64,000 nucleotides of DNA, taken from contig JBFWUW010000037.1 in the NCBI GenBank assembly GCA_050247075.1, forward strand, positions 1 to 64,000, in the 5' to 3' direction. Below are positions 16,959 to 43,765 of this stretch, in pieces. The DNA is from Pirellulales bacterium (GTDB lineage: Bacteria > Planctomycetota > Planctomycetia > Pirellulales > JBFWUW01). The stretch's first letter is position 1; each line of letters opens with the position of its first letter. The notes under the pieces are model-generated. The model was not told the origin of the DNA, ran no database searches, and saw nothing but the letters and a program-made list of their open reading frames with translations. The position numbers and the translations under genes are program-made.

Positions 16959-17230
16959 TGGTCGATCAAAAAAGAACTGCCGAGCCATAAGACCGCCGCA
17001 TCGACGAATGCACCCCAACCACCAGGCCGCATGATCCTTTTCATTCTAACCAGACCGATCTTTCCTTGGCGAGCATGGCGTTAGTTGCGGAAACCCAAAG
17101 CAAACCAAAGGAGCGGCATCAGGGTCGGGTTGCTCCAGAAAGGTCTGGCCCTGTTGACCACGTTGCGCAGGCGGCCAGAAAACGGACAGGACGAGTCGCG
17201 GCGAACGATTGCATTGGCTATCTTGTGGCC

Positions 17231-23980: not shown

Positions 23981-24246
23981 AATGCCGCCATCGTCATAAC
24001 CCGAATCACGGAACGCCGCGAGCTAACGGGAGATAACCCGAGTTCGCTGCGCCGCCGGCCCGACGGCATCAACAGCAAAGACGCGGCGGAAGGGGAACGG
24101 GTTCGCGGGGAAGGGGGAGAAAAGGCAGAAGGATGAAGGCGGAAGGACGAAGAAGAGTGGTTGCCGTGGGGTTGTAGAAATGGGATGGAGCTTGATAATG
24201 CCGGTGGTTCATGGTCGCCGGATCTTATGCATTTAAGGAGATTGTC

Positions 24247-25149
24247 ATGCCATTGCTGGTTGTTGGTTCGGTGGCCTTGGACAGCGTTGAGACACCTATG
24301 GACAAGCGCGATGACGTGCTGGGGGGCTCGGCGGTTTTTTTCTCGTACGCGGCCAGTTACTTTACGGGCGTGCGGCTGGTGGGCGTGGTGGGGGAGGATT
24401 GGCCGGCCGAGCATTCGCAGTTGCTGCAAACGCGGGGCATTGACACGTCGGGCCTGCATGTGGTGCCGGGTGGCAAGACCTTCCGTTGGCGCGGCAAGTA
24501 CCTGCCCAACATGAACGACCGCGAGACGCTGGAAGTCCACCTCAACGTGTTTGAGACCTTCGACCCCGTACTGCCCGACGATTACCGCCGCAGCCAGTTT
24601 TTGTTCTTGGCCAATGGCTCGCCGATTGTGCAGCTTAAGGTGCTGGAACAGGTGCCGGGGGCCACGCTGGTGGTGGCCGACACGATGGACCTGTGGATTA
24701 AGATTCAACATGCCGAGTTGATGCGGCTGTTCAAACGGCTGGACGGGCTGGTGCTGAACGATTCCGAGGCCAAGCTGCTAACCGGTGACGACAACCTGGT
24801 ACGGGCGGGGCACGCCGTCCGCAAGATGGGGCCCAAGTTCGTCATCATCAAAAAGGGGGAGCACGGCGCGATGTTCTTCAGCGAGCATGAGACTTACGTC
24901 ATGCCGGCGTTTCCCACGGCGGACGTGATTGATCCAACCGGGGCGGGCGACAGCTTTGCCGGAGGCATGATGGGCTACCTGGCCGAGCAAGGCAACTTTG
25001 AGCCGCAAACGCTGAAGACGGCCATGGCCTACGGCACGCTGGTCGCCAGCTTCAATGTGGAGGACTTCAGCCTCGACCGTCTACGAAAGATTGACCGCGC
25101 GGATATCGACCGCCGCATGAAAGAATACCGGCAGATGCTGAGCTTTTGA
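24247..25149 (+). CDS. PfkB family carbohydrate/nucleoside kinase (ribokinase-like)
   Basis: DPTGAGDSFAGGMMGY anion-hole motif. SD AAGGAG lies 6 nt upstream of ATG 24247. The track start 24211 is less likely. 300 aa. Confidence 0.85.
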   Translation: MPLLVVGSVALDSVETPMDKRDDVLGGSAVFFSYAASYFTGVRLVGVVGEDWPAEHSQLLQTRGIDTSGLHVVPGGKTFRWRGKYLPNMNDRETLEVHLNVFETFDPVLPDDYRRSQFLFLANGSPIVQLKVLEQVPGATLVVADTMDLWIKIQHAELMRLFKRLDGLVLNDSEAKLLTGDDNLVRAGHAVRKMGPKFVIIKKGEHGAMFFSEHETYVMPAFPTADVIDPTGAGDSFAGGMMGYLAEQGNFEPQTLKTAMAYGTLVASFNVEDFSLDRLRKIDRADIDRRMKEYRQMLSF

Positions 25150-25337: not shown

Positions 25338-26849
25338 TCATTCCGGGATGGGGGCTGACCGGCGAATGGTGGTCGCCCCTTCCCACACCGCTTCATCGGT
25401 GGCGGGGTCATACGTCAGCACGCGATGGGCGCTGCCGGCGGCGGGAGCCTCGTCGATGGTCGGCAGCCAGCGGCGATGATCGGCGATGATACGCTCGTAG
25501 GCGGCATCGTCGGCCAGATTGGTCCATTCGCGCGGGTCGGATTGCAAGTCGTACAATTCTTGGCTGCCGTCGGCGTAGTGGATATACCGCCAGCGCTGGC
25601 TGCGAACCGCATGGTTGCCACGGTTGTGCGAGGTAATGGCCGGCTTTTCGCGCGGCGCGTCGGCCTGTTGCAGTTGCGGCAGCAGGCTCTGCCCTTCCAG
25701 CCCATCGCTCGGCGGCAGATGGCTCAGTTCGACCAGCGTGGGATAAATATCGAGCAGTTCGGCGGGCTGCGTGCAGCGTCCGCCGGCTGCCACGCCCGGT
25801 CCGGCAAAGATCAATGGCACGCGGGTGGAGCGTTCCCACAGCGTGTTCTTGCCGGTAATGGCCTTCTCACCGAGGTGCCAGCCGTGGTCGCCCCACACCA
25901 CGACAATGGTGTTGTCGGCCAGTCCAGCCTGGTCGAGCGCCTCTATCAGGCGGCCGACTTGCGCATCAACAAAACTGGTGCAAGCCAGGTACGAGCGAAC
26001 GAGATTGCGCCATTGGCCGTTGTCACGAACCCACTTCAGCCGCGGTTCTGGCAGATTCCAATGCAAGTACCAGGAAAAACGGGGCGTGTCTTGGCGGTCG
26101 TTGTCCTGGATCGCTGGCAGCAGCGTATCATCATCGGGATAAAGATCGAACCATTTTTGAGTGGCATAGCACGGCACATGTGGCAGAAAAAAGCCAGCAG
26201 CCAGAAAAAACGGCTGGTCGCGCGGGGCAGCCGCAATTTGCTCGGCCGCCCAGGTGGCTACCTGGTAGTCGCCTTTGTCCTGGTCGCGGTGTGGAAAAAC
26301 GCCCCAGTCCATCAGCGGATGATTGCCCATCGGCGTGGGCGGAATGAGCTTGTCCGGCGGTTTGGCGCCAATGCCGCCGAACGGTCCCCATCCGTCAAAC
26401 TCGCTGGCTCGCTGAGCAGGGCCGCCGGCATCTCCATGATAAATCTTGCCGGTCGTTAGAGTCCGGTAGCCGTGCGCTTGGAAGTATTGTGGCAAAGTCA
26501 CCCGGTCGCTCCATCTGTCGAGCGTGCGAAACCAGGGGGCCAGGCCATAGATGCCAGTGGTGGTGGGGCGCAGTCCAAGCATCAGGCTGGTCCGCGAAGG
26601 GTTGCACAACGGGGCTTGGCAGTGGGCATTAAGAAACACCGTGCCGCCCTCGGCCAGCCGATCGAGGTGGGGCGTTTTGGCTAATGGGTGGCCGCCCAAC
26701 GCCCCGACCCAATCGTTCTGGTCGTCAATGGCAATGAACAAGATATTGGGCGGGCGCGGCGGTTCGGCGGAAATTGCCGTGGCATGAGAGTAGCACGCCA
26801 GCAGAACCAGAGAGGCCACCAGCCGTCGGCATCGAAGCAGATTACGCAC
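25338..26849 (-). CDS. sulfatase (arylsulfatase family, formylglycine-dependent)
   Basis: Signal peptide and the sulfatase signature CQAPLCNPSRTSLMLG (C-x-P-x-R FGE target), then GDHGWHLGE. 503 aa. Confidence 0.9.
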   Translation of the reverse strand: MRNLLRCRRLVASLVLLACYSHATAISAEPPRPPNILFIAIDDQNDWVGALGGHPLAKTPHLDRLAEGGTVFLNAHCQAPLCNPSRTSLMLGLRPTTTGIYGLAPWFRTLDRWSDRVTLPQYFQAHGYRTLTTGKIYHGDAGGPAQRASEFDGWGPFGGIGAKPPDKLIPPTPMGNHPLMDWGVFPHRDQDKGDYQVATWAAEQIAAAPRDQPFFLAAGFFLPHVPCYATQKWFDLYPDDDTLLPAIQDNDRQDTPRFSWYLHWNLPEPRLKWVRDNGQWRNLVRSYLACTSFVDAQVGRLIEALDQAGLADNTIVVVWGDHGWHLGEKAITGKNTLWERSTRVPLIFAGPGVAAGGRCTQPAELLDIYPTLVELSHLPPSDGLEGQSLLPQLQQADAPREKPAITSHNRGNHAVRSQRWRYIHYADGSQELYDLQSDPREWTNLADDAAYERIIADHRRWLPTIDEAPAAGSAHRVLTYDPATDEAVWEGATTIRRSAPIPE

Positions 26850-31563: not shown

Positions 31564-33210
31564 CTACCGTGAATTACTTCCTACGGGACCGGGCAGAATC
31601 AACCGCGGCTGTTGGCGGGCCGTGGCGGGCGTTTCTTCCTCCTCCGCGTCAGTCGGCTCCAAATCGAGCGGCGCGGGAACTTGGATTGTCAGCAGGCGAC
31701 CGGCTCGTTCGACCAGCACGGGCATCGGCCGCGGCTGATCGAGCAGCAAGCGGTGGAACTGGTCGCTCGTGTGAAAGGCCTTGCCGCCGACCTCATAGAC
31801 GCGATCGTTTACCAACAGGCCGGCATCGTCGGCCGGAGACCCTGGCACAACACGCGTGAGGGTGGCGGCCCCCGGCTCGGCATCGTCTAGCCGCCAAGTC
31901 ACACCCACCCGCACCGGTGCGCCGGTCGGACGGACGCGGACCGTGAGGGGTTCATCCTGGCCGCGGCGTTGCACGGCAAAGTCGAGTGGTCCCCGCGCGG
32001 CCAGCACCACGCGTCGAAACACTTCACCGTCGTGCAAATCGCGATTGCCCACGCGAAGGAGCCGGTCGCCAACCTGGATGCCGGCGATCGACGCGGCCGA
32101 TTTAGGCGTTACGCCCGTCACACGAATGCCGGGTTCTTGGCTCGGTTGCGGATCCCACTGCACGCCCATGCGGCCGGGCAACGGCCCCAAGGGGCGTTCT
32201 TGCAAGATTTGCGACTCGGGTGTTTCGTGTCGCGAGGCCGCGCGAAATTTCGGCAGACGCTCGGCATTGGCCAGTGAGCAAGTGGTTAAAAACATCAATC
32301 GCGACACGCGCTCCAAGCCGGGGATGTCCAGCTTTTCCGCATCGTCACTGGGCCGATGGTAGTCGTTATGCAATCCGGTATGCAGCATCAGCACCGGTAT
32401 GTTTTTGGCAAAGAACGAATAGTGGTCGCTGTCTTCCTTCATGGTCCAAGTGAAATCGAGCAGCAAATTGAGCTGCTCGTTCTGAAAACTGACCAATTGG
32501 CGGAAACCGGGTGCGGTGCGGCTTCCCAGAATTTCCACCCGTTCGCCACGTAGCCGGCCGATCATGTCGGCGTTTAGCATGGCCACGATGTGCGACAGCG
32601 GAATGCTGGGATGTTCCAGCCAATGTTTCGACCCTAATAAGCCCGCCTCTTCGGCATCCCAAAAGGCGAAGAGAATCGTTCTCCGCGGAGCCTCGGGAAG
32701 CTTCTTGCAAGCTTCTATGACTTCGACCAGTCCGGCGGTGCCGCTGGCGTTATCGTCCGCGCCGTTATGGATGTGGCCGATCGGCCCAAAACTGTTCTGC
32801 TGATTTCCGTATCCGACATGGTCATAGTGTGCCGAGACGACGACCACCTGCTCTTGCAGCAGCGGGTCCGAACCTTCCAATTTGGCCAGAATGTTGCGGG
32901 AGTTGCCGTTGAAGGGCTGAAAGTAGCTGCCGTCGGCGGCACCACCGGCCAGGCCCAAGCGTTGGAGCTCCTTGGCCAGGTAAACGCTGGCCGCGCGTCC
33001 GCCACGACTCCCGGCCTCGCGCCCCTCAAAGGTGTCGTTGGACAACAGCACGGCGTGGCGCTTGAGATCACCTGTCGTGATCGACTCCATGGCCGCATTG
33101 AGCACGGTGTCGCCACCGCTCGCCCGATGCGTCTGGCCAATAACCGCCAATGCAACCAACAGCAACGCCATCGGGCGGCCCGGCCGGGCCGTACGCAAAC
33201 TCAGCTTCAT
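31564..33210 (-). CDS. M28 family zinc aminopeptidase with two C-terminal PDZ domains
   Basis: VVVVSAHYDHVGYG, ADDNASGTAGLVEVIEACKKL and FAFWDAEEAGLLGSKHW are M28 metal-binding motifs. Two PDZ-like segments follow. Start at the internal ATG MKLSLRTARPGRPMALLLVALAV (signal peptide). Confidence 0.8.
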   Translation of the reverse strand: MKLSLRTARPGRPMALLLVALAVIGQTHRASGGDTVLNAAMESITTGDLKRHAVLLSNDTFEGREAGSRGGRAASVYLAKELQRLGLAGGAADGSYFQPFNGNSRNILAKLEGSDPLLQEQVVVVSAHYDHVGYGNQQNSFGPIGHIHNGADDNASGTAGLVEVIEACKKLPEAPRRTILFAFWDAEEAGLLGSKHWLEHPSIPLSHIVAMLNADMIGRLRGERVEILGSRTAPGFRQLVSFQNEQLNLLLDFTWTMKEDSDHYSFFAKNIPVLMLHTGLHNDYHRPSDDAEKLDIPGLERVSRLMFLTTCSLANAERLPKFRAASRHETPESQILQERPLGPLPGRMGVQWDPQPSQEPGIRVTGVTPKSAASIAGIQVGDRLLRVGNRDLHDGEVFRRVVLAARGPLDFAVQRRGQDEPLTVRVRPTGAPVRVGVTWRLDDAEPGAATLTRVVPGSPADDAGLLVNDRVYEVGGKAFHTSDQFHRLLLDQPRPMPVLVERAGRLLTIQVPAPLDLEPTDAEEEETPATARQQPRLILPGPVGSNSR

Positions 33211-33520
33211 GGTGGCAATTCCCAGGAAAGTTGCGAGACGAAGTTCTCGACGCCGCCCTTCCGCTGAGGCAGCCACTCTGCCGGCGTCACTGGACAGCCG
33301 GCCAGTCCCTATCTGTCATCATCATACGCGGCATACAAGGTAGTATCGATACCAACCACGCCAGACTTGCGTTGTCCTTGGCCAAACCAAGTCTGGTGAT
33401 ACCGGCTGTAACGATTGTTACGGCTAAAGTACCAAAGCACTAGCATTTACATCGGCTTATCCAGTAACATATAGGCCGGTGTTGATCGGCCACTCCGCGG
33501 TTGTGGGAGATGGAACAACG

Positions 33521-35023
33521 ATGCTTCGCATCTTGGGATCACGACGAGAACTATGTAACGGTGTTAGCCGCCGCGAAATGCTGCGCGTTGGCGGCTTGGG
33601 CCTGGCTGGCCTAGGTTTGCCCGATCTGCTGCGGTTGCAAGATGCGGCTGCTAGCGATGCAGTCAATCGCCCCGCATCGTTTGGCCGGGCCAAGTCGATC
33701 ATCTTGATTCATTTGTATGGCTCGCCCAGCCAACTGGAAACAGTCGATCCCAAGCCCGACGCTCCGGTGGAAATCCGCGGCGACTTGGGCTGTATCGACT
33801 CCAGCCTGCCGGGCATGCGCGTGGGCGAGTTGTTGCCGAATCTGGCCAAGGTCATGGATCGCACGACGATCCTTCGCTCGTTGACTCATCCTTATCCGCT
33901 GCACGGGGTGGCCTTTGCCTTGACGGGAGTGCCGGCAATTGACGTAGCGATGGAGCTCAACCCGCGTGATTCTCGGCACTGGCCCTACTTTGGATCCGTG
34001 GTCGAATACATCGACCGCGTTCAAAACCGGCCTGTTGCCAAACACCCCATTCCGCAAAACATGTTGTTGCCGTGGGCCTTTAGCACCCAACGCGTGGGCG
34101 AAGTGCCGCGGGCCGGTCCCTATGCCGCGTTCTTGGGGGCCGAATACAATCCGGTTTCGACCGAGTTCGTGGGGACGGCCACCAAAAAGCTTCGCCGCAC
34201 CTTGGCCGATAAGGTCCACGACGATAACGATCCTTATATCGGCCTTAGTCCCGACAGCCACTTTGTCGTCCCAAGTGCCACGCAGCTTTTGCCAGAGCTT
34301 ACGCTCGACCGGCTCAACGGCCGCAAGTCGCTGCTGGGCCAGTTCGAGGAAGCCCGCGCCGCGTTGAACGGAATCGCTGGCGGCGGCAAGCAAGACCGCT
34401 ACCAGCAGATGGCCTATTCGTTGCTGGAATCCGACGCTTTGCGGACTTCGCTCGACATCCGCCAGGAGCCAGAATCAACCCGTGCCCTGTACGGCTCAAC
34501 CTTGATGGGACAGTCGTGCCTTGCCGCCCGGCGTTTGGTGGAGGCAGGCGGCCGCGTGGTAAGCGTTTTTTGGGACGAGTTCGGCCTGGCCGGCAGCGGT
34601 TGGGATACGCACTGGAATCACTACCCGCGAATGAAAGAAGAACTTTGCCCCGGCCTCGATCAGGCTTGGTACGGGCTGATCACCGACTTGGACCAACGCG
34701 GGCTGTTGGACGATACGCTGGTGGTCTGTACCAGCGAACATGGCCGCACGCCGCAGATCAACCAGGCGCAAGGGGGGGGCCGCGACCACTGGTCGCGGGT
34801 TTACTCGGCCATGTTAGCGGGGGGCGGCATCGCGCGGGGTCGCGTGGTAGGTGCCTCCGACAAGCATGGCAGCGACCCGGCCGACTTGCCGCTTTCCCCC
34901 AAGGATATGCTGGCCACGATGTACCATTTGCTGGGGATCGACCACCATACCATCGTCCACGATGCCCTGACCCGGCCGCTTCCCTTGGTCGAGGGGCAAG
35001 TGATTCAGCACGCGCTGGCGTAA
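33521..35023 (+). CDS. DUF1501 family protein (sulfatase-fold, Tat-signal), orphan copy
   Basis: Tat-like N-terminus MLRILGSRRELCNGVSRREMLRVGGLGLAGLG and conserved DUF1501 blocks (DxHxxxNHYP-like ..WDTHWNHYPRMKEE.., GGGRDHW). There is no adjacent DUF1549/1553 partner. Confidence 0.85.
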   Translation: MLRILGSRRELCNGVSRREMLRVGGLGLAGLGLPDLLRLQDAAASDAVNRPASFGRAKSIILIHLYGSPSQLETVDPKPDAPVEIRGDLGCIDSSLPGMRVGELLPNLAKVMDRTTILRSLTHPYPLHGVAFALTGVPAIDVAMELNPRDSRHWPYFGSVVEYIDRVQNRPVAKHPIPQNMLLPWAFSTQRVGEVPRAGPYAAFLGAEYNPVSTEFVGTATKKLRRTLADKVHDDNDPYIGLSPDSHFVVPSATQLLPELTLDRLNGRKSLLGQFEEARAALNGIAGGGKQDRYQQMAYSLLESDALRTSLDIRQEPESTRALYGSTLMGQSCLAARRLVEAGGRVVSVFWDEFGLAGSGWDTHWNHYPRMKEELCPGLDQAWYGLITDLDQRGLLDDTLVVCTSEHGRTPQINQAQGGGRDHWSRVYSAMLAGGGIARGRVVGASDKHGSDPADLPLSPKDMLATMYHLLGIDHHTIVHDALTRPLPLVEGQVIQHALA

Positions 35024-35045
35024 GTTGGACGGATCGGCGTCAACC

Positions 35046-36203
35046 ATGCAAATCGTCGCCCGCGGCACCATCTACGATGCGACCGATGCTCCGCCTCACG
35101 AGCGGATCGCCTATTTTACGGCGCTCAGCCCTCTGCGGTCGGGTGCCATGCTCTGTTCGTTTCAATTGGGGCCGGGCAAGCATTCGCCCCACTCCACGAT
35201 TGGCCTCTGCCGCTCCGACGACCGGGGAGATTCCTGGCAGCGCCAGCCGTATGAATTCCGACGGGTGATTGACGGCGCACCTGGTTCGCTGGCCGGGGCG
35301 GAACTTGTGGAAGTCGAGCCAGGACGGTTGTTGCTGTTCGCCACCTGGTACGACCGCAGCGACCCCGACCGCCCATTGTTCGACCCGGTGACGGAAGGCA
35401 TTCTGCGCGGCAAACAGCTCTACGCGGTTTCCTCTGACGAAGGCCGCACCTGGAGCGATTGGCAAGAAATCGCCACGCCCGGCCTGACCGGCCGCGCCAC
35501 GACCGGCCCGTTGGTGCAATGGCCCGACGGCACCATCGCGTATTGTTTTGAGAGTTTTAAGGATTATGACGACCCGCGGCCCAGCCGCCACGCGGCTTGG
35601 ATGTTGGTCTCCCGCGATGGCGGACGAACTTTCTCTCAGCCACTGAGGGTGGCCAAACACCCGGACGACAAAATCTATTACTGGGACCAGCGGCTGACGC
35701 CGGGCCGACGGCCGGCGGAATTCGTGGCGCTTTTTTGGACCCACGATCTGCCGAACCAGCGGGACTTGCGCGTGCATATCGCCCGAGGAAAGGTAACGCC
35801 CGCGGCTGTGGCAGGCGTGGAAACTATGTCGATCGAGGTCGAAACACCCAGAGAAACGACGATTCCCGGCCAGATCGCCGCGCCACTGCTGCATGGCAAT
35901 CGCCTGCTGGCATTTGTCGTCGACCGGGCCCGTCCGGGTACGATGAGGCTTTGGTCGTCGTCCGACGACGGCGCAACCTGGCCGGAAGGGGGCTGTCTGA
36001 CTATTCACACCCACGAGGAACGCGCCGCGCTATCCCAAGGGCAAGAAAACATCGACTTCAAGCAGTACTGGGAAGACATGGGTAAATGGAGCTTTGGCCA
36101 CCCGGCGCTGCGGCGCTGGGACGACCAGCATGTATTGGCCGCGTGGTACGCCGGTACGCCGCAAACCATGAGCATTCACTGGGCCAGGGTGCGGGTGGAA
36201 TGA
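35046..36203 (+). CDS. BNR/Asp-box repeat protein, sialidase-like (exo-alpha-sialidase / GH33-like fold), no signal peptide
   Basis: Asp-boxes SDDRGDSWQ, SDEGRTWSDW, SRDGGRTFSQ and SSDDGATWPE. The start is set at ATG 35046 because the track start is a TTG. The N-terminus MQIVARGTIYDATD lacks a signal peptide. Confidence 0.7.
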   Translation: MQIVARGTIYDATDAPPHERIAYFTALSPLRSGAMLCSFQLGPGKHSPHSTIGLCRSDDRGDSWQRQPYEFRRVIDGAPGSLAGAELVEVEPGRLLLFATWYDRSDPDRPLFDPVTEGILRGKQLYAVSSDEGRTWSDWQEIATPGLTGRATTGPLVQWPDGTIAYCFESFKDYDDPRPSRHAAWMLVSRDGGRTFSQPLRVAKHPDDKIYYWDQRLTPGRRPAEFVALFWTHDLPNQRDLRVHIARGKVTPAAVAGVETMSIEVETPRETTIPGQIAAPLLHGNRLLAFVVDRARPGTMRLWSSSDDGATWPEGGCLTIHTHEERAALSQGQENIDFKQYWEDMGKWSFGHPALRRWDDQHVLAAWYAGTPQTMSIHWARVRVE

Positions 36204-36292
36204 CGCGCGTGCCGAGCAACACTCGCCGTGTTCAGCAAATCGACCGAGGGAAATACGGCCTTGTGTGCTATCATTGAATTGGAGGTCGATCC

Positions 36293-36880
36293 ATGTCTGT
36301 CGTCGAGAAGTCCTTTATCACGCCACAAGAGTACCTGGCGCGCGAACGCGCGGCGGCGTTTCGCAGCGAGTATTATCGCGGCGAAATGTTTGCCATGTCG
36401 GGTGCCAGTTGGGAGCACGCGCTCATCAAGGACAACCTGGCCCGCATCTTGGGCAATGAACTGGCTGGCGGGCCATGCCGGGCTGTTACCAGTGATCTGC
36501 GTGTGAAAGTTGACGAGAGCGGCCTCTATACGTATCCCGATTTGTTGGTTGTGTGCGGAGAACCGCGGTTCGAAGACAACGTGTTTGATACGCTGCTCAA
36601 CCCTCGTATCTTGATCGAAGTCCTTTCCGATTCGACCGAGAAATATGATCGTGGTGAGAAGTTTGCCCAATACCGGCGGATTGAATCGCTACAAGAGTAC
36701 GTGATGCTCTCGCAGACTCAGCCGCTGGCCGAGCGATTCGTACGGCAGCCGGATGGCTCCTGGCTGATGACCGCCGTTCCGGGGCTGGACCAGGCGTTCA
36801 CGTTCGGTACCATTGCCGTCACCGCTTTCTTGGCGGAAATTTATGCCGGCGTCCGATTTGCCGAAAGGCCGGCACGGTAG
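36293..36880 (+). CDS. Uma2 family (DUF820) PD-(D/E)XK endonuclease-like protein
   Basis: PQEYLARERAAAFRSEYYRGEMFAMSGASWEHALIKDNLARILGNEL...YPDLLVVCGEP is the Uma2 signature. SD GGAGG upstream. Confidence 0.8.
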   Translation: MSVVEKSFITPQEYLARERAAAFRSEYYRGEMFAMSGASWEHALIKDNLARILGNELAGGPCRAVTSDLRVKVDESGLYTYPDLLVVCGEPRFEDNVFDTLLNPRILIEVLSDSTEKYDRGEKFAQYRRIESLQEYVMLSQTQPLAERFVRQPDGSWLMTAVPGLDQAFTFGTIAVTAFLAEIYAGVRFAERPAR

Positions 36881-37047
36881 CCGCTTCGTCGCCGGTTTCC
36901 CTCCGGCGGACGATATTCTCTTCGGCCCGCAATTTCTTTTTTTGGCACCTTTGCGGACGGGCCTGTTTGCGTGACAATGGCCCGGTTCTTGAACCGCATT
37001 CTCCCGCCAGTCCCGACTTTGTTTGCTTCAACGAAGGAAACCCGTCC

Positions 37048-37962
37048 ATGCCCCGCTTTCCGCTTGGCATTATGTCAACCTGCGTCGTCCCCTGGGACGA
37101 GCAAGGTGAGATGATGGAGGACCTCTTCCGCCATCAGGTCCGCGAGAGCGTTCGCGGCACCAAGAACTTGTACGTCTTCGGCACGGCCTGCGAGGGCTAC
37201 GCCGTCACCGACCGGCAGTTCGACCGCGTGACAACGGTGTTTAGTGACGAAATGCGCAAGTGCGGCGCCGAGCCGATGATTGGCGTGATCGGCCTATCAC
37301 TGCTAACAATCATCGAACGCATCGCCCGCTGCCGCGAGGCGGGCGTGAAGTTGTTTCAGATCTCGCTGCCGTCGTGGGGCGCGCTGGCCGAGAGCGAGGT
37401 CTTCACGTTCTTTCGCGAGGTCTGCGGCCGTTTCCGCGACTGCCGCTTTTTGCACTACAACCTGATGCGGACCAAACGGCTGGTGACGGGGGCGGAATAT
37501 GCCCGGTTGGCGGCCGAACATCCCAACCTGGTGGCAACCAAGAACAGCACCGACAGCATCACACGCGTGCATGACCTGATGAAGCAGGCTCCCGATCTAA
37601 CGCACTTTTTAGACGAAAGCGGCTACACCTACGCCAGCCAGATCGGCGAGTGCGGGCTGCTGGCCAGCGTGCCGGTCATCAACTGGAAGTTCTGCCAGGA
37701 GTTTTTCGACGCTGGCCAACAGCGCGATACCAAACGCATGCTGGAACTGTACCAGGAAGTCTGCGACATTACCGGCGGGCTGATGCAATCGGTCAACCAC
37801 GCCTCCTTCATCGACGGCGCGTACGACAAGATGCTGTGGAAGTTCACCGACCGCCGCTTCCCGCTCCGTCTGCTTCCGCCCTACGAATACGCCAGCGAAG
37901 AGTCGTTCGGAAAGTTCGTATCGTTCGTCGAGAAGAACTACCCGCACTGGGCGGGAAAGTAG
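37048..37962 (+). CDS. DapA/NAL family class I aldolase-like protein (dihydrodipicolinate synthase / N-acetylneuraminate lyase family), divergent
   Basis: LYVFGTACEGYAVT (GTxGE-like), ..YNLMRT.., PNLVATKNST (PNIVGIKE-like). ATG 37048 is preceded by GAAGGAAA. Confidence 0.55.
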   Translation: MPRFPLGIMSTCVVPWDEQGEMMEDLFRHQVRESVRGTKNLYVFGTACEGYAVTDRQFDRVTTVFSDEMRKCGAEPMIGVIGLSLLTIIERIARCREAGVKLFQISLPSWGALAESEVFTFFREVCGRFRDCRFLHYNLMRTKRLVTGAEYARLAAEHPNLVATKNSTDSITRVHDLMKQAPDLTHFLDESGYTYASQIGECGLLASVPVINWKFCQEFFDAGQQRDTKRMLELYQEVCDITGGLMQSVNHASFIDGAYDKMLWKFTDRRFPLRLLPPYEYASEESFGKFVSFVEKNYPHWAGK

Positions 37963-37998
37963 TTTTCGGTTTTCATCCCTCATACCTCATACCTCCCA

Positions 37999-39033
37999 AT
38001 GTCCACTCTCCGCATCGGCCTCATCGGTTCCGGCTATATGGGCCGCAGCTACGCTGAGTGCATCAAGAAATATACGACGGGCGGCCAACTCGCGGCCATT
38101 ACAGGCGGCAGCCGCGGGCCCAAGTTGGCGGCCGACTATGAGGTGCCGCTGGTCGAAAGCGTGCCGGCGCTGCTGGCTCGCGACGATGTAGACGCCGTGC
38201 TGGTGGCGACACCGCACAGTGTCCACTTGGAGCAAGTCACCTTGGCTGCCGCCGCCGGCAAGCATGTGCTGGTCGAAAAGCCGATGGCACTTAACCGGAG
38301 AGAGTGCGACCAGATGATCGCCGCTTGCCAAAAGAGCGGGGCGACATTGTCGGTCATTCAGACTTGCCGTTTCCGCGGCACCGTGGCCCGCGCCAAGAAA
38401 ATGGTCGATGAAGGCCGTATCGGCAAGGTCCGCATGATCCAACTGCGGACCCTGTTTGAATGGGTGCCGATCAAGGGGCAAAGCTGGTCCGAGCAAGAAT
38501 GGGAAGGAGGCCTAATCCTCGACCAAGGGGCGCACAATTTTGACTTCATGCGGTGGTTTGCCGGCAGCGAGGCGGCCTGGGCCTTTGGCCGCGTCAAGAA
38601 CTACAGCGGTTCGACTTATCCGGCACCGACCGGCATGGCCCAAGTGGAGTTTGCCAACGGTGTCTCCGCCCAAACCTGGATGTCGTTTGAATTGCCCAAG
38701 CCGGGGATCGAGCGGACCCAATTTCGCGGGCTGATCGTCGGCGAGACGGGCATGTTGGATGTCGATGGCTATGGCCAGCTGCACGCCGCGCTGGACGGCA
38801 AGCCCTGGGAGATGGTGTGGGAGCAGCCAGCCATTGACTACGTTAACAAACCGCTGGCCCCAGAACGGCTGGAAGCGTTCTATACGCAAGTTCAAGATTT
38901 TATCGACGCCGTACGAAACAAGCGTAGGCCCGCCGTGACGGGTGAGGACGGCCGGGCCGCCATCGAACTGATCGACGCCGTGCGGCAGTCTAACGTGTCG
39001 GGCCAGGCTGTTTCCTTGCCGTTGGGAAAGTGA
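37999..39033 (+). CDS. Gfo/Idh/MocA family oxidoreductase
   Basis: IGLIGSGYMGRSYAE Rossmann motif and LVEKPMALNRREC (EKP). 344 aa. Confidence 0.85.
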   Translation: MSTLRIGLIGSGYMGRSYAECIKKYTTGGQLAAITGGSRGPKLAADYEVPLVESVPALLARDDVDAVLVATPHSVHLEQVTLAAAAGKHVLVEKPMALNRRECDQMIAACQKSGATLSVIQTCRFRGTVARAKKMVDEGRIGKVRMIQLRTLFEWVPIKGQSWSEQEWEGGLILDQGAHNFDFMRWFAGSEAAWAFGRVKNYSGSTYPAPTGMAQVEFANGVSAQTWMSFELPKPGIERTQFRGLIVGETGMLDVDGYGQLHAALDGKPWEMVWEQPAIDYVNKPLAPERLEAFYTQVQDFIDAVRNKRRPAVTGEDGRAAIELIDAVRQSNVSGQAVSLPLGK

Positions 39034-39043
39034 GCATCGTTCC

Positions 39044-40165
39044 ATGAAAATCACTTCCGTCAGCACGCACGCCCTGCGCTACCCGCTGCCCAAGACCTAT
39101 GGCGGATCGCACTACGACTACAGCCAGCGCGACTTTTTGCTGGTCAAGGTGACGGCCGACAACGGACTGGTTGGCTGGGGCGAGACGGCCCTGTTCGGCG
39201 GCGTCCGCAGTTTGATCGATGGCACGCTGGGACCGGCCGTGATCGGCCAAGATCCGCGGCGACATCGCCACCTGTGGCAAAAAATGTGGGGCTGGAATTT
39301 TGGCAACGGCATGGCTGTTGGCGGGTTGGACATTGCCCTGGAGGACTTGCGCGGCAAGGCCACCGGCATGTCGCTTTCCGACCTGCATGGGGGGCGCGTC
39401 CGCGACCGCGTGCCGGTCTATGCTTCTTCGCTGAACTACACCCAAGGCATCGACCCGCTGCAATCGTATCCGGCCGACGCCAAGGAACTTGTCGCCCGCG
39501 GTTTCAAGGCCATGAAGCTGCGGATTGGCCGGCAGCCGTTTCGGCAAGACATGAATATGGTAGCGGCGGTGCGACAGGCGGTCGGTCCCAATGTGATGCT
39601 GCTGGCCGATGGCAACGCCGGGTACACGCTGGCTTCGGCCGTGCAAGTCGGCAAAGAGCTTGAGCGGCAGGGCCTGTACTGGTTTGAGGAGCCGTTGCCC
39701 GAGGCCAACTACGCCGGTTACGAAGCGCTCCGCGAAAAGCTCGATATCGCCCTGGCTGGCGGCGAGGTACTCAACGGCCGAGGCGACGCCCGCGAGATCA
39801 TCGCCCGCCGGGCCATCGACATTATCCAGCCCGATGTCACCCTTTGCGGCGGCTTCGCCGAGTGCCTGTTCATCGCCGAAATGGCCGCGCTGTGGGGCAT
39901 CACCTGCAACCCGCATTGCTACGGCGGGCCGATTGCCGCGGTTGCCACGCTGCATTTGCTTTCCCTGCTGCCAGAACCCAACCTAAGCTACACGCCGGAA
40001 GTCCCCATGTTGGAGTTGGATGTTTCTCCCAGTCCGCTGATGGAGCGGCTGGTGCGGCAACCACTCAGTCTGGCCGACGGCCAAATGCCGGTGCCCACCG
40101 GGCCGGGACTGGGCATTGAGATTGATGAGGATGTGTTGCGTGAGTTTGAGGTAGTGAATAACTGA
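39044..40165 (+). CDS. enolase-superfamily enzyme, mandelate racemase/muconate lactonizing enzyme family (sugar-acid dehydratase-like)
   Basis: N-terminal capping domain plus TIM barrel with KLRIG, LLADGNAGYT, FEEPL and IIQPDVTLCGG metal-ligand blocks. 373 aa. Confidence 0.85.
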   Translation: MKITSVSTHALRYPLPKTYGGSHYDYSQRDFLLVKVTADNGLVGWGETALFGGVRSLIDGTLGPAVIGQDPRRHRHLWQKMWGWNFGNGMAVGGLDIALEDLRGKATGMSLSDLHGGRVRDRVPVYASSLNYTQGIDPLQSYPADAKELVARGFKAMKLRIGRQPFRQDMNMVAAVRQAVGPNVMLLADGNAGYTLASAVQVGKELERQGLYWFEEPLPEANYAGYEALREKLDIALAGGEVLNGRGDAREIIARRAIDIIQPDVTLCGGFAECLFIAEMAALWGITCNPHCYGGPIAAVATLHLLSLLPEPNLSYTPEVPMLELDVSPSPLMERLVRQPLSLADGQMPVPTGPGLGIEIDEDVLREFEVVNN

Positions 40166-40182
40166 TTCACGGGATCAACCGC

Positions 40183-41079
40183 ATGAAGACGGAAGGTTGC
40201 TGGCCGGCGTTGCTGACTCCGCTGGATGCTGATGGAGAGCCTTGCCCCGCCGCCATAGAGCGGTTGGTAGAGCTCTTCGTGCGGCAAAACCTGGGCGGGC
40301 TGTACATCATCGGCTCAACTGGCCAGTGGCCGCTGTTGCGCCTCGATCAGCGGCGCACTGTGGCCGAGCGCGTGGTGCAAGCATCGGCCGGCCGTATCCC
40401 GGTGATGGTCCATGTCGGCGCGATTGCCACGGACGACGCCGTGGCCCTGGCCGAACATGCCGCGCAGATCGGGGCCGATGCCGTCTCCTGCGTGGCACCG
40501 GTCTACTATCCCACCACGGCTGACATGACGTTCGAACACTATCGCCGCATCGGCGCGGCATCGCGGCTGCCACTGTACGTCTACCATCTCTCGATTGTCA
40601 ATCAATCCTCGCTCGATCCCCAGGATTACGTCCAGCGACTGCTGGCCCTGCCAAACATCGCCGGCATGAAGATCACCGACGGCGATATGTACCAGTTTGG
40701 GTTGCTCCATTCTTACGCCGGCAACCAGCTCAAACTATTCAGCGGCGCGGACGAGGTGCTGTGCCACGCCGCCCTCAGCGGTGCCTGTGGCGCGATCGGC
40801 ACGTTTTATAACGTGTGGGGACCGGCTTGCCAGGCAGCAAGGCAGCGGTTCGTGACGGGGGACGTGGCGCTGGGCTACCGGTTCATGCTGGCCTTTCAAC
40901 GGGCGATTTCCGAGATTATTCGCTCGAAGTCGATTTGGACATTTTTGCGGGCCGCCATGCAGCGGCGTTACCAAATCGACATTGGCCGCCCCCGCGGACC
41001 GCTAGGCTCTATGGATAAGCCGTGGGCTGATGCCGATGTCGATCGCTTGCTGGCTTCGGTGGACCAGGCGGCGTTGTAA
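40183..41079 (+). CDS. DapA/NAL family lyase (dihydrodipicolinate synthase / N-acetylneuraminate lyase family)
   Basis: LLTPLDADGE, YIIGSTGQW (GTTGE-like), PVMVHVGA, APVYYP, LYVYHLS and PNIAGMKITDGD match DapA family blocks. Confidence 0.8.
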   Translation: MKTEGCWPALLTPLDADGEPCPAAIERLVELFVRQNLGGLYIIGSTGQWPLLRLDQRRTVAERVVQASAGRIPVMVHVGAIATDDAVALAEHAAQIGADAVSCVAPVYYPTTADMTFEHYRRIGAASRLPLYVYHLSIVNQSSLDPQDYVQRLLALPNIAGMKITDGDMYQFGLLHSYAGNQLKLFSGADEVLCHAALSGACGAIGTFYNVWGPACQAARQRFVTGDVALGYRFMLAFQRAISEIIRSKSIWTFLRAAMQRRYQIDIGRPRGPLGSMDKPWADADVDRLLASVDQAAL

Positions 41080-41100
41080 ACAAGAACTCCAGGAACCCCC

Positions 41101-41889
41101 ATGCACACCAGTAAAATCAAAGCCAAGCTGGCTCAAAACAAACCCGCGTTGATCTCTGCTTTGCATCTGACCGACCCGTCGGTCTACGAGATGGCCAGCT
41201 TGCTGGGGATTGACGGCATCTGGATGGACCTGGAGCATCACGGCTACTCGGTAGAGACGGCCGGGCAGCTCATGCGCGCCGCGCGCGTGGGGGGGGCTGA
41301 TATCATGGCCCGTCCGGCCAAAGGAGAGTTCATGCGGCTGGGACGCCTGTTTGAGGCGGGGGCGACCGGCGTCCTCTACCCGCGCTGCGACAATGCCGCC
41401 GAGGCGGCCGAAGTCGTCAAATGGTCAAAGTTTGCCCCGCTGGGCCGCCGCGGCTTTGACGGCGGCAACCCCGACATGCCGTACTGCACCATGTCGATCC
41501 CCGACTATATCGCCGCCGCCAACCGCGAGACCTTTGTGGCGATACAGATTGAAGACCCCGACGCCTTGGATTGTGTCGAGGCCATCGCGGCGGTGGAAGG
41601 GGTCGATGTGTTGTTCTTTGGCCCGTCCGACTTCTCCATCATCAGCGGCATACCGGGCCAGTTCGACCATCCCACGCTGCAAGCCGCCATGAAGCGTATC
41701 GCCGCGGCCGCCAAGAAGGCCGGCATTCATTGGGGCATGCCCGTCGCCAGCGTCACCCACGCCCAGGAACTGTTGGAGCTTGGTGCCCGCTTCATCTGCC
41801 ACGGCTGCGATATCGTCATGGTCAAAGCCGGTTTGGAAGCCATCCAGCGGCAGTTTGCACCGCTGGGGTTCAGTTTTGAGAAAGGATGA
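41101..41889 (+). CDS. HpcH/HpaI family aldolase (2-keto-3-deoxy-sugar-acid aldolase-like)
   Basis: ISALHLTDPSVYEMASLLGIDGIWMDLEHHGYSVETAGQLMRAARVGGADIMARP is the HpcH/HpaI/citrate-lyase beta signature. 262 aa. Confidence 0.8.
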   Translation: MHTSKIKAKLAQNKPALISALHLTDPSVYEMASLLGIDGIWMDLEHHGYSVETAGQLMRAARVGGADIMARPAKGEFMRLGRLFEAGATGVLYPRCDNAAEAAEVVKWSKFAPLGRRGFDGGNPDMPYCTMSIPDYIAAANRETFVAIQIEDPDALDCVEAIAAVEGVDVLFFGPSDFSIISGIPGQFDHPTLQAAMKRIAAAAKKAGIHWGMPVASVTHAQELLELGARFICHGCDIVMVKAGLEAIQRQFAPLGFSFEKG

Positions 41890-42008: not shown

Positions 42009-43172
42009 CTACTTGGCTAACTCGACGATGCGCAAATTGCGAAACGACAAATTGGTGGTTGGATCGTGTCCTTGTATCGACAGTGTGCCAGCTTCCACCC
42101 GCAGCCCCTTGCGAGGGTTCGCGTCGGGTTTGCGGGTGTCGGTCCAGTCACTCACCGGAAAGCCGTTCACCCATCCGGCCATGTGCGGACCGTCGGCGAC
42201 CAGCGTCATGGCGAACCACTCGTGGTCGTTTGAGACGACCCGCCGCGCATCTTGTCGTCGATAGAACCCGCCGGTTCCGCAATCGAGCGGTTTGTTGCGG
42301 TCGCCGTCCTTGTAGCCATTTTGAATTTGAAACTCGTAACCCAGCTTGAAGTCGCCAGGAATCGAGCGAAAGAAAATTCCTGAGTTGAGATGTTCGCCAT
42401 GTGAGATGGCTTCAAGTTGCAAGACAAAATCGCCGTAACTCTCCTCGCTCTCCAGCTGGCCATCGCCGTTTTCCACATGCAGATATCCCTCGGATGTGAC
42501 CGAGTAGACACTGGCCTTGCCGGCCAGCTCCTTCCAGCCCGACAAGTCCTTGCCGTTAAAGATGCTCCGCAGCCCCAAAGGCTTGAGCTTAATGTTACGG
42601 AACTCGACCGGCCCGGCATTGTATTGCAGGCCAATATGCCCGCGGGCCAACGGGTGGGGATCGGTGTAGTCCAAGACGGTCTCGCCATCTAGCTTGACGG
42701 TGATTTGCGCCCCCTGGGCAGCAACTTCGTAGGAGTGCCATTGCGTCAGATCGTGCTGGCCGCCCGACCTTTGCCGTCCGACAAAACTGCCGGTGGGAAA
42801 AGGGCTAATGGCCGGCGCGGCAATGTTTAGCTCGTAGCAGTCCTTTGCCGGGTCGGTGGGTATCGGCGGAGTCCGCAAGAAGATACCACTGTTGGTTTCG
42901 GCCGATGCGCGAAAGTCGGCCTTAAAGACGTAATCGGCGAACTGGCTAGTGGTGTTGAGCAGCCCCTTGGTTCCTTCGCTGACGGTGATCGCGCCGTCGG
43001 CCACGTTCCAATTGGCATCGGTGGCGGCCTTCCAACCAAACGTGCTCTCGCCGTCGAATAGCAAAATCCAACCCTTGGCCATCTCGTCCGGCGTTAGCGT
43101 ATTTGGTTCCGCGGAAAACCCGCTAGCCGCCACTGAACCCAACACGGCACATATTAAAAACCGCTGCAACAT
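42009..43172 (-). CDS. secreted protein with two DUF1080 (3-keto-disaccharide hydrolase / LamG-like jellyroll) domains
   Basis: Internal start MLQRFLICAVLGSVAASGFSAEP (signal peptide). GWILLFDGESTFGWK...FADYVFKADFR is repeated as GWKELAGKASVY...YGDFVLQLE. Confidence 0.7.
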   Translation of the reverse strand: MLQRFLICAVLGSVAASGFSAEPNTLTPDEMAKGWILLFDGESTFGWKAATDANWNVADGAITVSEGTKGLLNTTSQFADYVFKADFRASAETNSGIFLRTPPIPTDPAKDCYELNIAAPAISPFPTGSFVGRQRSGGQHDLTQWHSYEVAAQGAQITVKLDGETVLDYTDPHPLARGHIGLQYNAGPVEFRNIKLKPLGLRSIFNGKDLSGWKELAGKASVYSVTSEGYLHVENGDGQLESEESYGDFVLQLEAISHGEHLNSGIFFRSIPGDFKLGYEFQIQNGYKDGDRNKPLDCGTGGFYRRQDARRVVSNDHEWFAMTLVADGPHMAGWVNGFPVSDWTDTRKPDANPRKGLRVEAGTLSIQGHDPTTNLSFRNLRIVELAK

Positions 43173-43202
43173 GCGAACCACCTGTGGTTGGTTGAACCTG
43201 AA

Positions 43203-43225
43203 TCGGCGTTGGAAACGCCTCCTAC
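43203..43225 (-). promoter_or_regulatory. copy of the GTAGGAGG + GGCGTTTCCAACGCC palindrome element, ~30-45 nt upstream of the DUF1080 gene start
   Basis: The minus strand reads gagttgtaggaggcgtttccaacgccgatt. The 15-bp palindrome is perfect here. Confidence 0.45.
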
Positions 43226-43231
43226 AACTCT

Positions 43232-43765
43232 TCATTCGACGCTCGTCACTCGACACTCGGCAGTTCCCCCCGGTTGCCATGTCGATCGGATCTCCAAGTA
43301 TACTTCCCCAATGAGGCCTCCGGGGAGTTGTTCGCGGCCATATCGGCTAGGGGCCGCCGCTCCAGGTTCCACCCGCGGTAGTTCGACCATAAAAACCAAT
43401 TCGTTGCGATCGGCTAGCAGCGGCGTGAGGTGGAACTCGGCTGGCGGGGGAAGAAAACCGGCCGTCCCCAGTGATTGGCCGTTGAGCGACACCAGGGCGG
43501 CGGGATCGACGCCGTTGATTTTCAGCCAGACTTGTTCGTGGTCTTCCAACCCGGTCGGCAAGTTGAAATGCCGGCGGAATCGCACGCGGCCGCGAAAATC
43601 GGTCCCTATCGCCGCGCCCCAATCGGCGGGCGGGCGGTACTCGGCGGCAGGTGGCAACTCGCCCGGTTCGGCCTCCACCCGACCGTCCGCGCGGCGCACC
43701 AATCTGGCCAGCGGCTCGCAGGCCCAAGGCCCACGCAAGCGAATACGGTGTGGATAGATCGGCAT
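43232..43765 (-). CDS. hypothetical protein (beta-sandwich, weakly GH2 N-terminal sugar-binding-domain-like)
   Basis: MPIYPHRIRLRGPWACEP...WLKINGVDPAALVSLNGQSLG. Coding-like codon bias. No firm family assignment. Confidence 0.35.
   Translation of the reverse strand: MPIYPHRIRLRGPWACEPLARLVRRADGRVEAEPGELPPAAEYRPPADWGAAIGTDFRGRVRFRRHFNLPTGLEDHEQVWLKINGVDPAALVSLNGQSLGTAGFLPPPAEFHLTPLLADRNELVFMVELPRVEPGAAAPSRYGREQLPGGLIGEVYLEIRSTWQPGGTAECRVTSVE

Follow-up and report, generated by a model that had tools for sequence, protein, structure and literature searches.

A sialidase-fold protein with an altered predicted active site and its association with a putative non-phosphorylative sugar-acid gene cluster in Planctomycetota

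Introduction

What does a sialidase-like gene contribute to a gene cluster that encodes two N-acetylneuraminate lyase (NAL)-family proteins outside a canonical nan operon? Planctomycetota possess many genes resembling those of glycoside hydrolase family 33 (GH33); they also have NanA but lack the remainder of the nan pathway (PMC2693436, PMC11929135). In Planctomycetes, NanA is present without NanK or NanE (PMC2693436). We addressed this question at a locus in the Pirellulales bacterium assembly GCA_050247075.1, using the first 64,000 nucleotides of contig JBFWUW010000037.1 (hereafter, the window). Seven co-directional genes at 35046–41889 encode, in order, a BNR-like protein (hereafter, the BNR protein), a Uma2 protein, a divergent dihydrodipicolinate synthase (DHDPS)/NAL-family protein (DapA1), a Gfo/Idh/MocA oxidoreductase (the Gfo enzyme), an enolase-superfamily protein (the enolase member), a second DHDPS/NAL-family protein (DapA2), and an HpcH/HpaI aldolase (HpcH). 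A preliminary description of this sequence had read the BNR protein as a cytoplasmic sialidase-like enzyme at the head of a sugar-acid catabolic operon.

Our analysis favors, tentatively and at a level short of probable, a two-tier aldolase route that would run in the cytoplasm without phosphorylation and degrade an ulosonic acid of the kind represented by sialic acid, 3-deoxy-nonulosonic acid (KDN), or 3-deoxy-octulosonic acid (Kdo). The BNR protein, judged by sequence comparison, appears to be neither a canonical sialidase nor an inert BNR protein, and is predicted to be a sialidase-fold enzyme with a different active site.

Results

Fold and predicted active site of the BNR protein

The BNR protein was identical to a database protein from a Pirellulales metagenome-assembled genome (MAG). 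It exhibits a six-bladed β-propeller of the sialidase (GH33) type, in agreement with GH33 as far as the fold is concerned, and carries four Asp-box-like motifs (SDDRGDSW, SSDEGRTW, SRDGGRTF, and SSDDGATW). The first strand of the AlphaFold2 model begins at residue 2 and leaves no room for a signal peptide, which bears out the cytoplasmic location proposed previously. Because the score of the BNR protein against the Pfam BNR_2 model (27.1) was below the gathering cut-off (31.4), the sialidase-like assignment rests on the fold and not on Pfam. A sequence search against the PDB yielded a sole, marginal match to Dfer_1899 (PDB ID: 5HX0), a structural-genomics protein without assigned function that is only 17–18% identical to the BNR protein; a literature search on Dfer_1899 and its structure found nothing relevant.

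The catalytic residues of GH33 were mapped using a reference alignment of four annotated sialidases from plasmid records and human Neu2; a search of a phage collection for a GH33 reference gave no match. Comparison of this alignment with the BNR family profile by hhalign gave a probability of 98.4% and an E-value of 8.6e-15, with the same mapping in the MAC and global modes; this is a comparison of sequence profiles whose C-terminal half is of low confidence, as only the N-terminal half aligned at the stricter mact of 0.35. In that lower-confidence C-terminal half, the nucleophile Tyr mapped to His352, which was invariant in 75 of 75 species, and, again within the lower-confidence part, the Glu partnering the nucleophile mapped to position 208, where His, Asn, Asp, and Gln occur variably. 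The acid/base Asp of the blade-1 loop fell in a six-residue deletion of the BNR protein, where K45 and H46 are located, and HMMER alignments to solved sialidases independently gave an acid/base loop without an acidic residue. Among the Arg residues, the RIP Arg mapped to R20 (conserved in 61 of 75 species) by hhalign and to Y23 in the ungapped HMMER alignment, Arg2 mapped to the invariant R216, and Arg3 mapped to P297, three residues after the invariant R294; R104 was also invariant. The C-terminal Glu of GH33 mapped to Ala369.

The overall identity within the 75-species set was 53–72%, and the polar and aromatic residues invariant throughout it were K45, R104, E169, D214, R216, H233, D240, Q276, R294, W342, D344, H352, and Y368. 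With the DSSP string and the established fold topology as a guide, most of these residues would be placed at strand starts or in B–C loops on the active-site face, as would a conserved helical insert (residues 323–349). Since at least 12 polar or aromatic residues are invariant across 75 species, the BNR protein is predicted to be catalytic rather than inert. A canonical sialidase was rejected as a candidate, as the protein fails in the nucleophile pair, the acid/base Asp, and the Pfam cut-off. The earlier reading as a sialidase-like enzyme was therefore not upheld at the active site, where, in the profile alignment, the nucleophile Tyr is replaced by an invariant His, the position of its partner varies, and the acid/base loop is deleted. 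The preliminary description had also named the converse, a BNR protein that lacks the sialidase catalytic residues and is non-enzymatic; the lack of these residues was found, whereas the invariant residues argue against the non-enzymatic part.

Distribution and genomic contexts of the BNR family

The search for the BNR family returned 897 matches at E ≤ 1e-3, the top 120 of which showed 59–70% identity, and a scan of one genome per species placed the family in 211 species. The 80 loci kept were nearly all from Planctomycetota, with single loci from Armatimonadota, Acidobacteriota, and Verrucomicrobia. We determined the genomic contexts of 75 non-redundant BNR loci by tblastn and clustering of open reading frames (ORFs), followed by Pfam and NCBIfam annotation; a BNR ORF was called in 74 of them. 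Loci of other genomes are designated below by labels such as L007.

Genes of the cluster in the window recurred near BNR orthologs in different combinations. Orthologs of DapA1 (52–56% identity) were found near BNR at L001, L007, L016, L019, L021, and L043; enolase orthologs (50% identity) were located just upstream of BNR in six species (L021, L026, L030, L036, L037, and L043); and HpcH orthologs (56–68% identity) occurred less than 10 kb from BNR in five species (L035, L038, L047, L068, and L080). The set of Gfo, DHDPS, enolase, and BNR families was repeated at L021, L030, and L043, with the DapA1 ortholog also present at L021 and L043. Three of the four DapA1 orthologs sampled on long contigs adjoined a BNR-fold gene: at P0280, BNR was located 90 nt upstream of DapA1; at L177, DapA1 was divergent from BNR, and after it came genes for a distinct enolase-family protein, an esterase, a DHDPS protein, and a D-Ser-dehydratase-like (DSD-like) enzyme; and at L178, a distant BNR paralog overlapped DapA1, after which came a gene for a major facilitator superfamily (MFS) transporter. 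No BNR gene was found by the DapA1 ortholog at L179. With regard to conservation of the neighborhood across the phylum, the operon was not kept as a block, whereas the pairing of BNR with DapA-family genes and the shared family set recurred.

The distant BNR paralog, 24–30% identical to the BNR protein, was found in tandem with a BNR ortholog in some genomes (Table 1). At L178, it is this paralog and not the ortholog that forms an operon with DapA1 and the MFS transporter gene.

The BNR and DapA1 orthologs at L007 are only 18 nt apart without a Uma2 gene; accordingly, the Uma2 gene that separates the two in the window appears to have been inserted. Three tandem Uma2 genes were also observed at L091 (13768–15945), near a pair of DapA2 and HpcH orthologs; Uma2 genes apparently tend to insert in the surroundings of such catabolic genes.

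At least one recurrent neighbor family was found in 45 of the 74 loci with a called BNR ORF. Amidohydro_2 genes were near BNR in 17–19 loci, and in 11 of these the gene was immediately downstream on the same strand (<150 nt), often 3–8 nt away. Other recurrent neighbors encoded a short-chain dehydrogenase/reductase (SDR; 15–16 loci), a class III aminotransferase (AT3; 14 loci, directly upstream in nine), an SSF symporter (10–11 loci), a PhyH dioxygenase (10 loci), a secreted protein with a faint match to the BT_1020 propeller (9–10 loci), the DSD-like pyridoxal phosphate (PLP) enzyme (eight loci), an aldehyde dehydrogenase (ALDH; seven loci), and a class IV aminotransferase (AT4; five loci). 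HEAT_2 proteins, an aldo-keto reductase, an AstE/AspA-like deacylase, and a GntR/FCD regulator were rarer. Long conserved operons surround the BNR orthologs of L068, L085 (799–12135), L044, and L053; the operon of L068 (1–12135) runs ALDH, DSD-like, 3HCDH-like, an unknown gene, HpcH, Gfo, PhyH, HEAT_2, SDR, AT3, BNR, and Amidohydro_2. Operons of this kind may encode a so far uncharacterised system that breaks down an amine-bearing acid.

The SSF symporter of the BNR operons was closest to the sialic acid symporter SiaT (PDB ID: 5NV9; 5e-46) and keeps the SiaT carboxylate ligands S60 and T63, as well as Q82. This ligand pattern supports a predicted carboxylated substrate that is not necessarily N-acetylneuraminic acid (Neu5Ac). 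The label of a Neu5Ac-specific transporter was not adopted, as the conservation of ligands is only partial.

DHDPS/NAL-family proteins

DapA2 found its best PDB match in Escherichia coli NanA (7e-41). Its Schiff-base residue Lys165, Tyr137, and the carboxylate-binding S47 and T48 were kept in 119–120 of 120 family members. The sugar-binding residues of NAL were similarly conserved: T167, G189, and D191 were invariant, E192 was found in 114 of 120 members, and S208 was replaced conservatively by Thr in 113 of 120; Y43 and Y110 were also kept family-wide. Scores against the NCBIfam NanA models were below their cut-offs (168.6 vs 281 for NF003164; 137 vs 382 for TIGR00683). The residues specific to NAL, kept in 113–120 of 120 members, substantiated the earlier assignment to the NAL family, and we regard DapA2 as a predicted N-acetylneuraminate-lyase-like aldolase that agrees with NanA in its residues and falls short of it in score.

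Of four DapA2 orthologs sampled, one was located by an HpcH gene, one was in an operon with aminotransferase genes, and two were isolated. The first (L091) adjoins an HpcH ortholog of 70% identity. The second operon (L094) runs SDR, AT3, SSF, PhyH, Amidohydro_2, a pyrroloquinoline quinone (PQQ) propeller, a 659-aa protein, DapA2, and AT4, in which the SDR, AT3, PhyH, Amidohydro_2, and AT4 proteins are 61–72% identical to the counterparts that flank BNR elsewhere. Because genes of the L094 operon flank BNR in other genomes, BNR and DapA2 belong to one gene network, even though the two occur together only in the window.

The start codon of DapA1 is ATG at 37048 and not TTG at 36967; the former yields a protein of 304 aa that matches the database protein. 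DapA1 passes the DHDPS gathering score (40.2 vs 22.1 bits) and reaches none of the NCBIfam subfamily models, with weak matches to KdgD (31–32 bits). Lys165, Tyr137, and Y43 were invariant in 120 homologs, and T47 was kept in 119, so that the Schiff-base Lys and the proton-relay Tyr expected for this family were both found. Position 48 is occupied by Ala and position 110 by Trp, position 191 is an invariant Glu, and S208 is kept.

Enolase member, Gfo enzyme, and HpcH aldolase

The enolase member best matched AtGCI (PDB IDs: 4GGB and 4HPN; 1.2e-69; approximately 35% identity), followed by DauB (PDB ID: 5OLC; 1.2e-56). On the basis of the active-site residues listed for AtGCI and DauB (PMC5698469), it keeps the metal ligands D189, E215, and E241 (D194, E220, and E246 in AtGCI) and the general acid His291 (His296 in AtGCI). 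K158 is present, and the K-x-R motif was kept in seven orthologs. As Arg160 is found in place of the predicted base Lys and the pocket residues D87 and W298 of AtGCI are not kept, any reaction assigned to the enolase member is tentative. The subgroup is that of the acid-sugar dehydratases and cycloisomerases, as the preliminary description had expected; dipeptide epimerase and o-succinylbenzoate synthase (OSBS) were rejected, scoring 40–64 bits against 150–180 for acid-sugar dehydratases.

The ORFs of several enolase orthologs in a Planctomyces-like lineage (L021 8478–9779, L026, L036, L037, and L043) reach upstream of the region aligned with the protein in the window, which begins directly at the barrel-capping domain. 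At L021, the extension includes RRDFF ahead of a hydrophobic segment, a motif resembling a twin-arginine signal; export would be an unusual trait for an enzyme of the enolase superfamily.

The best NCBIfam match of the Gfo enzyme was inositol 2-dehydrogenase (141.5 bits vs a cut-off of 355), and its PDB matches, including the WlbA-like 3Q2K and 6Z3B/6Z3C, were all distant, with no close characterised relative; we propose that it is a sugar (aldose) dehydrogenase. HpcH passes the Pfam gathering score (91.7 vs 25 bits), scored approximately 126 bits on each of the HpaI and GarL models, below the cut-offs, and also did not reach the cut-off of the YfaU equivalog. Alignment of HpcH with HpaI (PDB ID: 2V5J) showed that the EH, RP, QIE, and GPxD motifs are kept, which correspond to the HpaI active-site residues His45, Arg70, Glu149, and Asp175. 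Orthologs of HpcH with 56–70% identity adjoin the DapA2 ortholog (L091) or are located near BNR orthologs.

Organization of the cluster and content of the window

All seven genes were found on the plus strand with the family assignments given previously (Table 1), and the 10–36 nt reported between the last five genes corresponded to measured gaps of 36, 10, 17, and 21 nt. A scan for promoters and terminators in the cluster gave no signal above chance. The stop codon of the DUF1501 gene is 22 nt ahead of the BNR gene, and a DUF1501 gene was the immediate same-strand neighbor of the BNR ortholog in 6 of 74 loci (three upstream and three downstream); the DUF1501 protein is probably exported and outside the pathway. 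Among the scanned window ORFs of at least 200 aa, we found no MFS, SSF, TRAP, or ABC transporter, no NanK, and no NanE or AGE epimerase. The cluster is therefore not a canonical nan operon, in line with its initial characterization as something other than a textbook one.

Table 1. Genes of the cluster, flanking genes, and distant BNR paralogs at other loci
Feature	Sequence	Position	Strand	Evidence
DUF1501 protein	window	33479–35023	+	Pfam DUF1501 262.9 bits; twin-arginine-like N-terminus
BNR-like protein	window	35046–36203	+	ATG, 385 aa; sialidase (GH33) fold
Uma2 putative endonuclease	window	36293–36880	+	Pfam Uma2 104.7 bits
DapA1, divergent DHDPS/NAL-family class I (Schiff-base) enzyme	window	37048–37962	+	Pfam DHDPS 40.2 bits
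Gfo/Idh/MocA NAD(P) oxidoreductase	window	37999–39033	+	Pfam
Enolase-superfamily acid-sugar dehydratase/cycloisomerase	window	39044–40165	+	MR_MLE_C 211.7 bits
DapA2, predicted N-acetylneuraminate-lyase-like class I aldolase	window	40183–41079	+	DHDPS 159.6 bits
HpcH/HpaI class II (metal-dependent) 2-keto-3-deoxy-acid aldolase	window	41101–41889	+	Pfam 91.7 bits
M28+PDZ peptidase	window	31564–33276	-	
Sulfatase	window	25338–26849	-	
Distant BNR paralog	L038	8862–9965		
Distant BNR paralog	L083	3605–4711		
Distant BNR paralog	L032	6100–7200		
Distant BNR paralog	L178	7898–9004		

The sulfatase, DUF1501, and M28 genes noted nearby in the preliminary description are present. There is little to support the context of sulfated glycan foraging proposed from them: the phylum commonly has both sulfatase and DUF1501 genes, and the sulfatase gene is 8 kb away on the opposite strand. 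This link was dropped, being without specific evidence.

Long antisense ORFs cover the BNR gene (35040–36014, minus strand, 324 aa) and the enolase gene (38990–39955, minus strand, 321 aa). They are not genes; ORFs of this kind often arise in DNA with a high G+C content (approximately 61% in the window), and at several related loci the antisense ORF outsizes the real gene. A two-domain 3-keto-disaccharide hydrolase (DUF1080) protein is encoded convergently with the end of the cluster (42009–43280, minus strand), 119 nt from the HpcH stop codon; a link between this gene and the cluster was sought in other genomes, and none was found save weak matches at L046 and L070.

More distant in the window, a PutA (proline dehydrogenase/pyrroline-5-carboxylate dehydrogenase) gene (3745–6774, minus strand) is located 30 kb from the cluster, and a second PutA gene at L094 (13055–16807) is two genes downstream of AT4, the last gene of the DapA2-containing operon. 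The occurrence of PutA at both loci could be a coincidence or a tie to hydroxyproline-type metabolism. A 1463-aa protein (17903–22294, plus strand) contains WD40 repeats in addition to a Ser/Thr kinase domain and a sulfatase-modifying-factor-like (FGE-sulfatase) domain, and a gene for an extracytoplasmic function (ECF) sigma factor (17066–17809) is directly upstream of it. A putative gene (24211–25149, plus strand) shows a partial PfkB carbohydrate-kinase match in its C-terminal part only and overlaps a minus-strand ORF (23785–24711).

Discussion

Proposed two-tier aldolase route

The enzyme set of the cluster fits the non-phosphorylative cleavage of a keto-deoxy sugar acid, as proposed at the outset. 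The data show the folds, the assignment of each protein to its family, the retention of catalytic residues in the lyases and the aldolase, and the genomic couplings described above; the substrate, the sequence of reactions, and what the BNR protein would catalyze are inferred. The BNR protein would open the two-tier route by converting a derivative of an ulosonic acid into the free keto-acid; this derivative may be a glycoside of small size taken up by the cell, or else the acid in an anhydro, unsaturated, or cyclic form. The invariant His352, His233, Glu169, Asp214, Asp240, Asp344, and Lys45 may constitute its catalytic constellation, with the candidate Arg residues binding the carboxylate. 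A NAL-type lyase (DapA2 and/or the BNR-coupled DapA1) would then cleave the keto-acid into pyruvate and an aldose via the Lys Schiff base. The Gfo enzyme would oxidize the aldose to an aldonolactone or aldonate, the enolase member would dehydrate the aldonate to a 2-keto-3-deoxy-aldonate, and the metal-dependent HpcH (or DapA1) would release a second pyruvate and a short aldehyde. Such a route accounts for the three pyruvate lyases in one cluster, the coupling of BNR with DapA1, and the NanA of Planctomycetes without NanK or NanE.

Several findings weigh against the two-tier route. The sialidase nucleophile pair and acid/base residue appear to be missing, and glycoside hydrolysis by the BNR protein is therefore not assured; the C-terminal half of the profile alignment is itself of low confidence. 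In the enolase member, R160 replaces Lys166, the predicted base of AtGCI, and the pocket residues Asp87 and Trp298 are Gly and Tyr. The five-gene block as such is not conserved: in an enolase-centred scan of metagenomes for conservation of the block (45 loci of at least 6 kb), 3–4 loci carried BNR or DapA1 and none carried orthologs of DapA2 or HpcH, and among the 75 BNR loci no DapA2 ortholog was found within 10 kb of BNR except in the window. The commonest partners of BNR, the aminotransferase and Amidohydro_2, are both absent from the window and left unexplained by the scheme, and the role of the AT3–BNR–Amidohydro_2 core is explained by no model considered here. Likewise, no model explains why one lineage has an enolase ortholog with a Tat-like signal. 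Finally, the SiaT ligands R135, N247, and Q250 are not kept in the symporter of related operons.

Alternative explanations

The close relation of the enolase member to AtGCI, with the anhydro-galactonate cycloisomerase DauB next (PMC5698469), the nearly equal scores of HpcH on the GarL and HpaI models, and the weak matches of DapA1 to KdgD all fit an oxidative uronate/aldarate pathway. In such a pathway, the Gfo enzyme would oxidize a uronate or a related sugar to an aldarolactone, which the enolase member, as an AtGCI-like cycloisomerase, would convert into 5-keto-4-deoxy-glucarate; the last step would be either KdgD-like dehydration and decarboxylation by DapA1 or DapA2 or GarL-like cleavage by HpcH to pyruvate and tartronate semialdehyde, and the BNR protein would be an unrelated or accessory neighbor. 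We consider this pathway unlikely. The Arg in place of the predicted AtGCI base and the change of pocket residues that AtGCI and DauB share, in a protein of only approximately 35% identity, speak against a cycloisomerase of this type, and DapA2 scored 168.6 bits on NanA vs 62.5 on KdgD and keeps the sugar-binding GxDE motif of NAL. Moreover, the cluster contains no α-ketoglutarate semialdehyde (KGSA) dehydrogenase, tartronate semialdehyde reductase, or uronate transporter, and the recurrent adjacency of BNR and DapA1 is at odds with an incidental neighbor.

The wider gene network of the BNR family, with its class III and IV aminotransferases, PhyH, the AstE/AspA-like deacylase, the DSD-like PLP enzyme, a betaine-aldehyde-type ALDH, Amidohydro_2, and the symporter, may instead serve the catabolism of an amine-bearing substrate (an amino sugar acid, an N-acyl nonulosonic acid, or a hydroxy-amino acid). 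Candidates are neuraminic, legionaminic, and pseudaminic acids, an acid of the glucosaminate type, and a β-hydroxy amino acid. The window would then contain only the part acting on the carbon skeleton, and the BNR protein would act on an amine-bearing intermediate. The commonest operon partners of BNR, AT3 upstream and Amidohydro_2 downstream, and the recurrence of SDR, PhyH, DSD-like, ALDH, and AT4 genes point in this direction, as does the DapA2 ortholog of L094, located between such genes and AT4 and near PutA. The window contains no gene of this amine-handling set, no known pathway fits the gene set, and the assignments are at the level of Pfam families only; we give this explanation a low probability. 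It is more improbable still that the genes form no single pathway, having been brought together by chance or recently in a phylum of weak operon structure, with the BNR protein as a non-catalytic binding or structural propeller. Such a juxtaposition would be consistent with the lack of block conservation, the Uma2 gene interrupting the cluster, promoter and terminator signals not above chance, and the missing canonical sialidase residues. On the other hand, gaps of 10–36 nt across five co-directional genes are unusual for the phylum, the BNR–DapA1, BNR–enolase, BNR–HpcH, and DapA2–HpcH pairings recur across genomes, and the invariant residues of the BNR protein, at only 53–72% identity, point to an enzyme.

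Relation to known systems

By analogy, the cluster may work like a hybrid of the first nan steps and a non-phosphorylative Entner–Doudoroff/Dahms-type branch. It resembles the nan system (NanH, NanA, NanK, NanE, and NanT/SiaT) in encoding a sialidase-fold protein beside NAL-family lyases, in the NanA catalytic and sugar-binding residues kept by DapA2, and in the SiaT-like symporter of related operons. It differs in that the BNR protein is cytoplasmic and, in the profile alignment, is without the Tyr/Glu pair and acid/base Asp, that DapA2 is below the NanA equivalog cut-off, and that the window lacks NanK, NanE, NagA/B, and a transporter; a dehydrogenase, an enolase-type dehydratase, and a class II aldolase replace the phosphorylative branch. 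Non-phosphorylative Entner–Doudoroff, Dahms, and L-rhamnose and L-fucose oxidative pathways share the sugar dehydrogenase, the enolase-superfamily aldonate dehydratase, and the HpcH/DHDPS aldolase, and their Amidohydro_2 lactonase, SDR, and ALDH have counterparts in related loci, whereas the cluster adds a NAL-type lyase and a sialidase-fold protein and has no lactonase in the window.

The D-galacturonate oxidative pathway (Udh, Gci [AtGCI], and KdgD) and glucarate/galactarate catabolism (GarL) likewise employ an enolase-superfamily cycloisomerase, of which the cluster has a relative, and DHDPS- and HpcH-family enzymes that handle keto-deoxy sugar acids in a non-phosphorylative manner. Here, the enolase member is 35% identical to AtGCI with the base Lys replaced by Arg and pocket residues altered, neither DapA protein scores as KdgD-like, the dehydrogenase belongs to the Gfo family and is not an SDR-type Udh, and there is no KGSA dehydrogenase. 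In the 3,6-anhydro-D-galactose pathway of Zobellia galactanivorans (DauA–DauD; PMC5698469), DauB is the second-best solved relative of the enolase member, and the logic of a dehydrogenase, an enolase-type enzyme, and a keto-deoxy-acid aldolase is similar; in contrast to the cluster, DauA is an aldehyde dehydrogenase, DauC and DauD (kinase and 2-keto-3-deoxy-6-phosphogalactonate [KDPGal] aldolase) are phosphorylative, and the DauB pocket residues are not kept here. A His at the nucleophile position of the sialidase fold has been studied in the Aspergillus fumigatus KDNase variant Y358H (PDB ID: 4M4N), although that His was engineered and the one in the BNR family is naturally invariant.

Implications

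The BNR proteins form a large family of predicted enzymes that is uncharacterised and mis-annotated, its members now bearing the name 'sialidase family protein' or 'exo-alpha-sialidase'. Provided that the profile alignment is correct, the family lacks the catalytic residues, and sialidase counts in Planctomycetota genomes are probably inflated. We further considered the joint proposal, which we regard as rather doubtful, that the BNR family, cytoplasmic and with an invariant His for the nucleophile Tyr and a conserved helical insert (residues 323–349) predicted on the active-site face, is a new class of sialidase-fold enzyme that acts on free or minimally conjugated ulosonic or nonulosonic acids rather than hydrolyzing sialoglycans and, together with DapA1, starts an undescribed, Planctomycetota-wide, non-phosphorylative route for sialic-acid-like compounds. 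If true, this would explain the presence of NanA in Planctomycetota without NanK or NanE. The locus and its relatives define a testable gene set for the use of sialic-acid-like sugars, comprising a sialidase-fold enzyme, a partner lyase, and a kinase-free oxidative branch.

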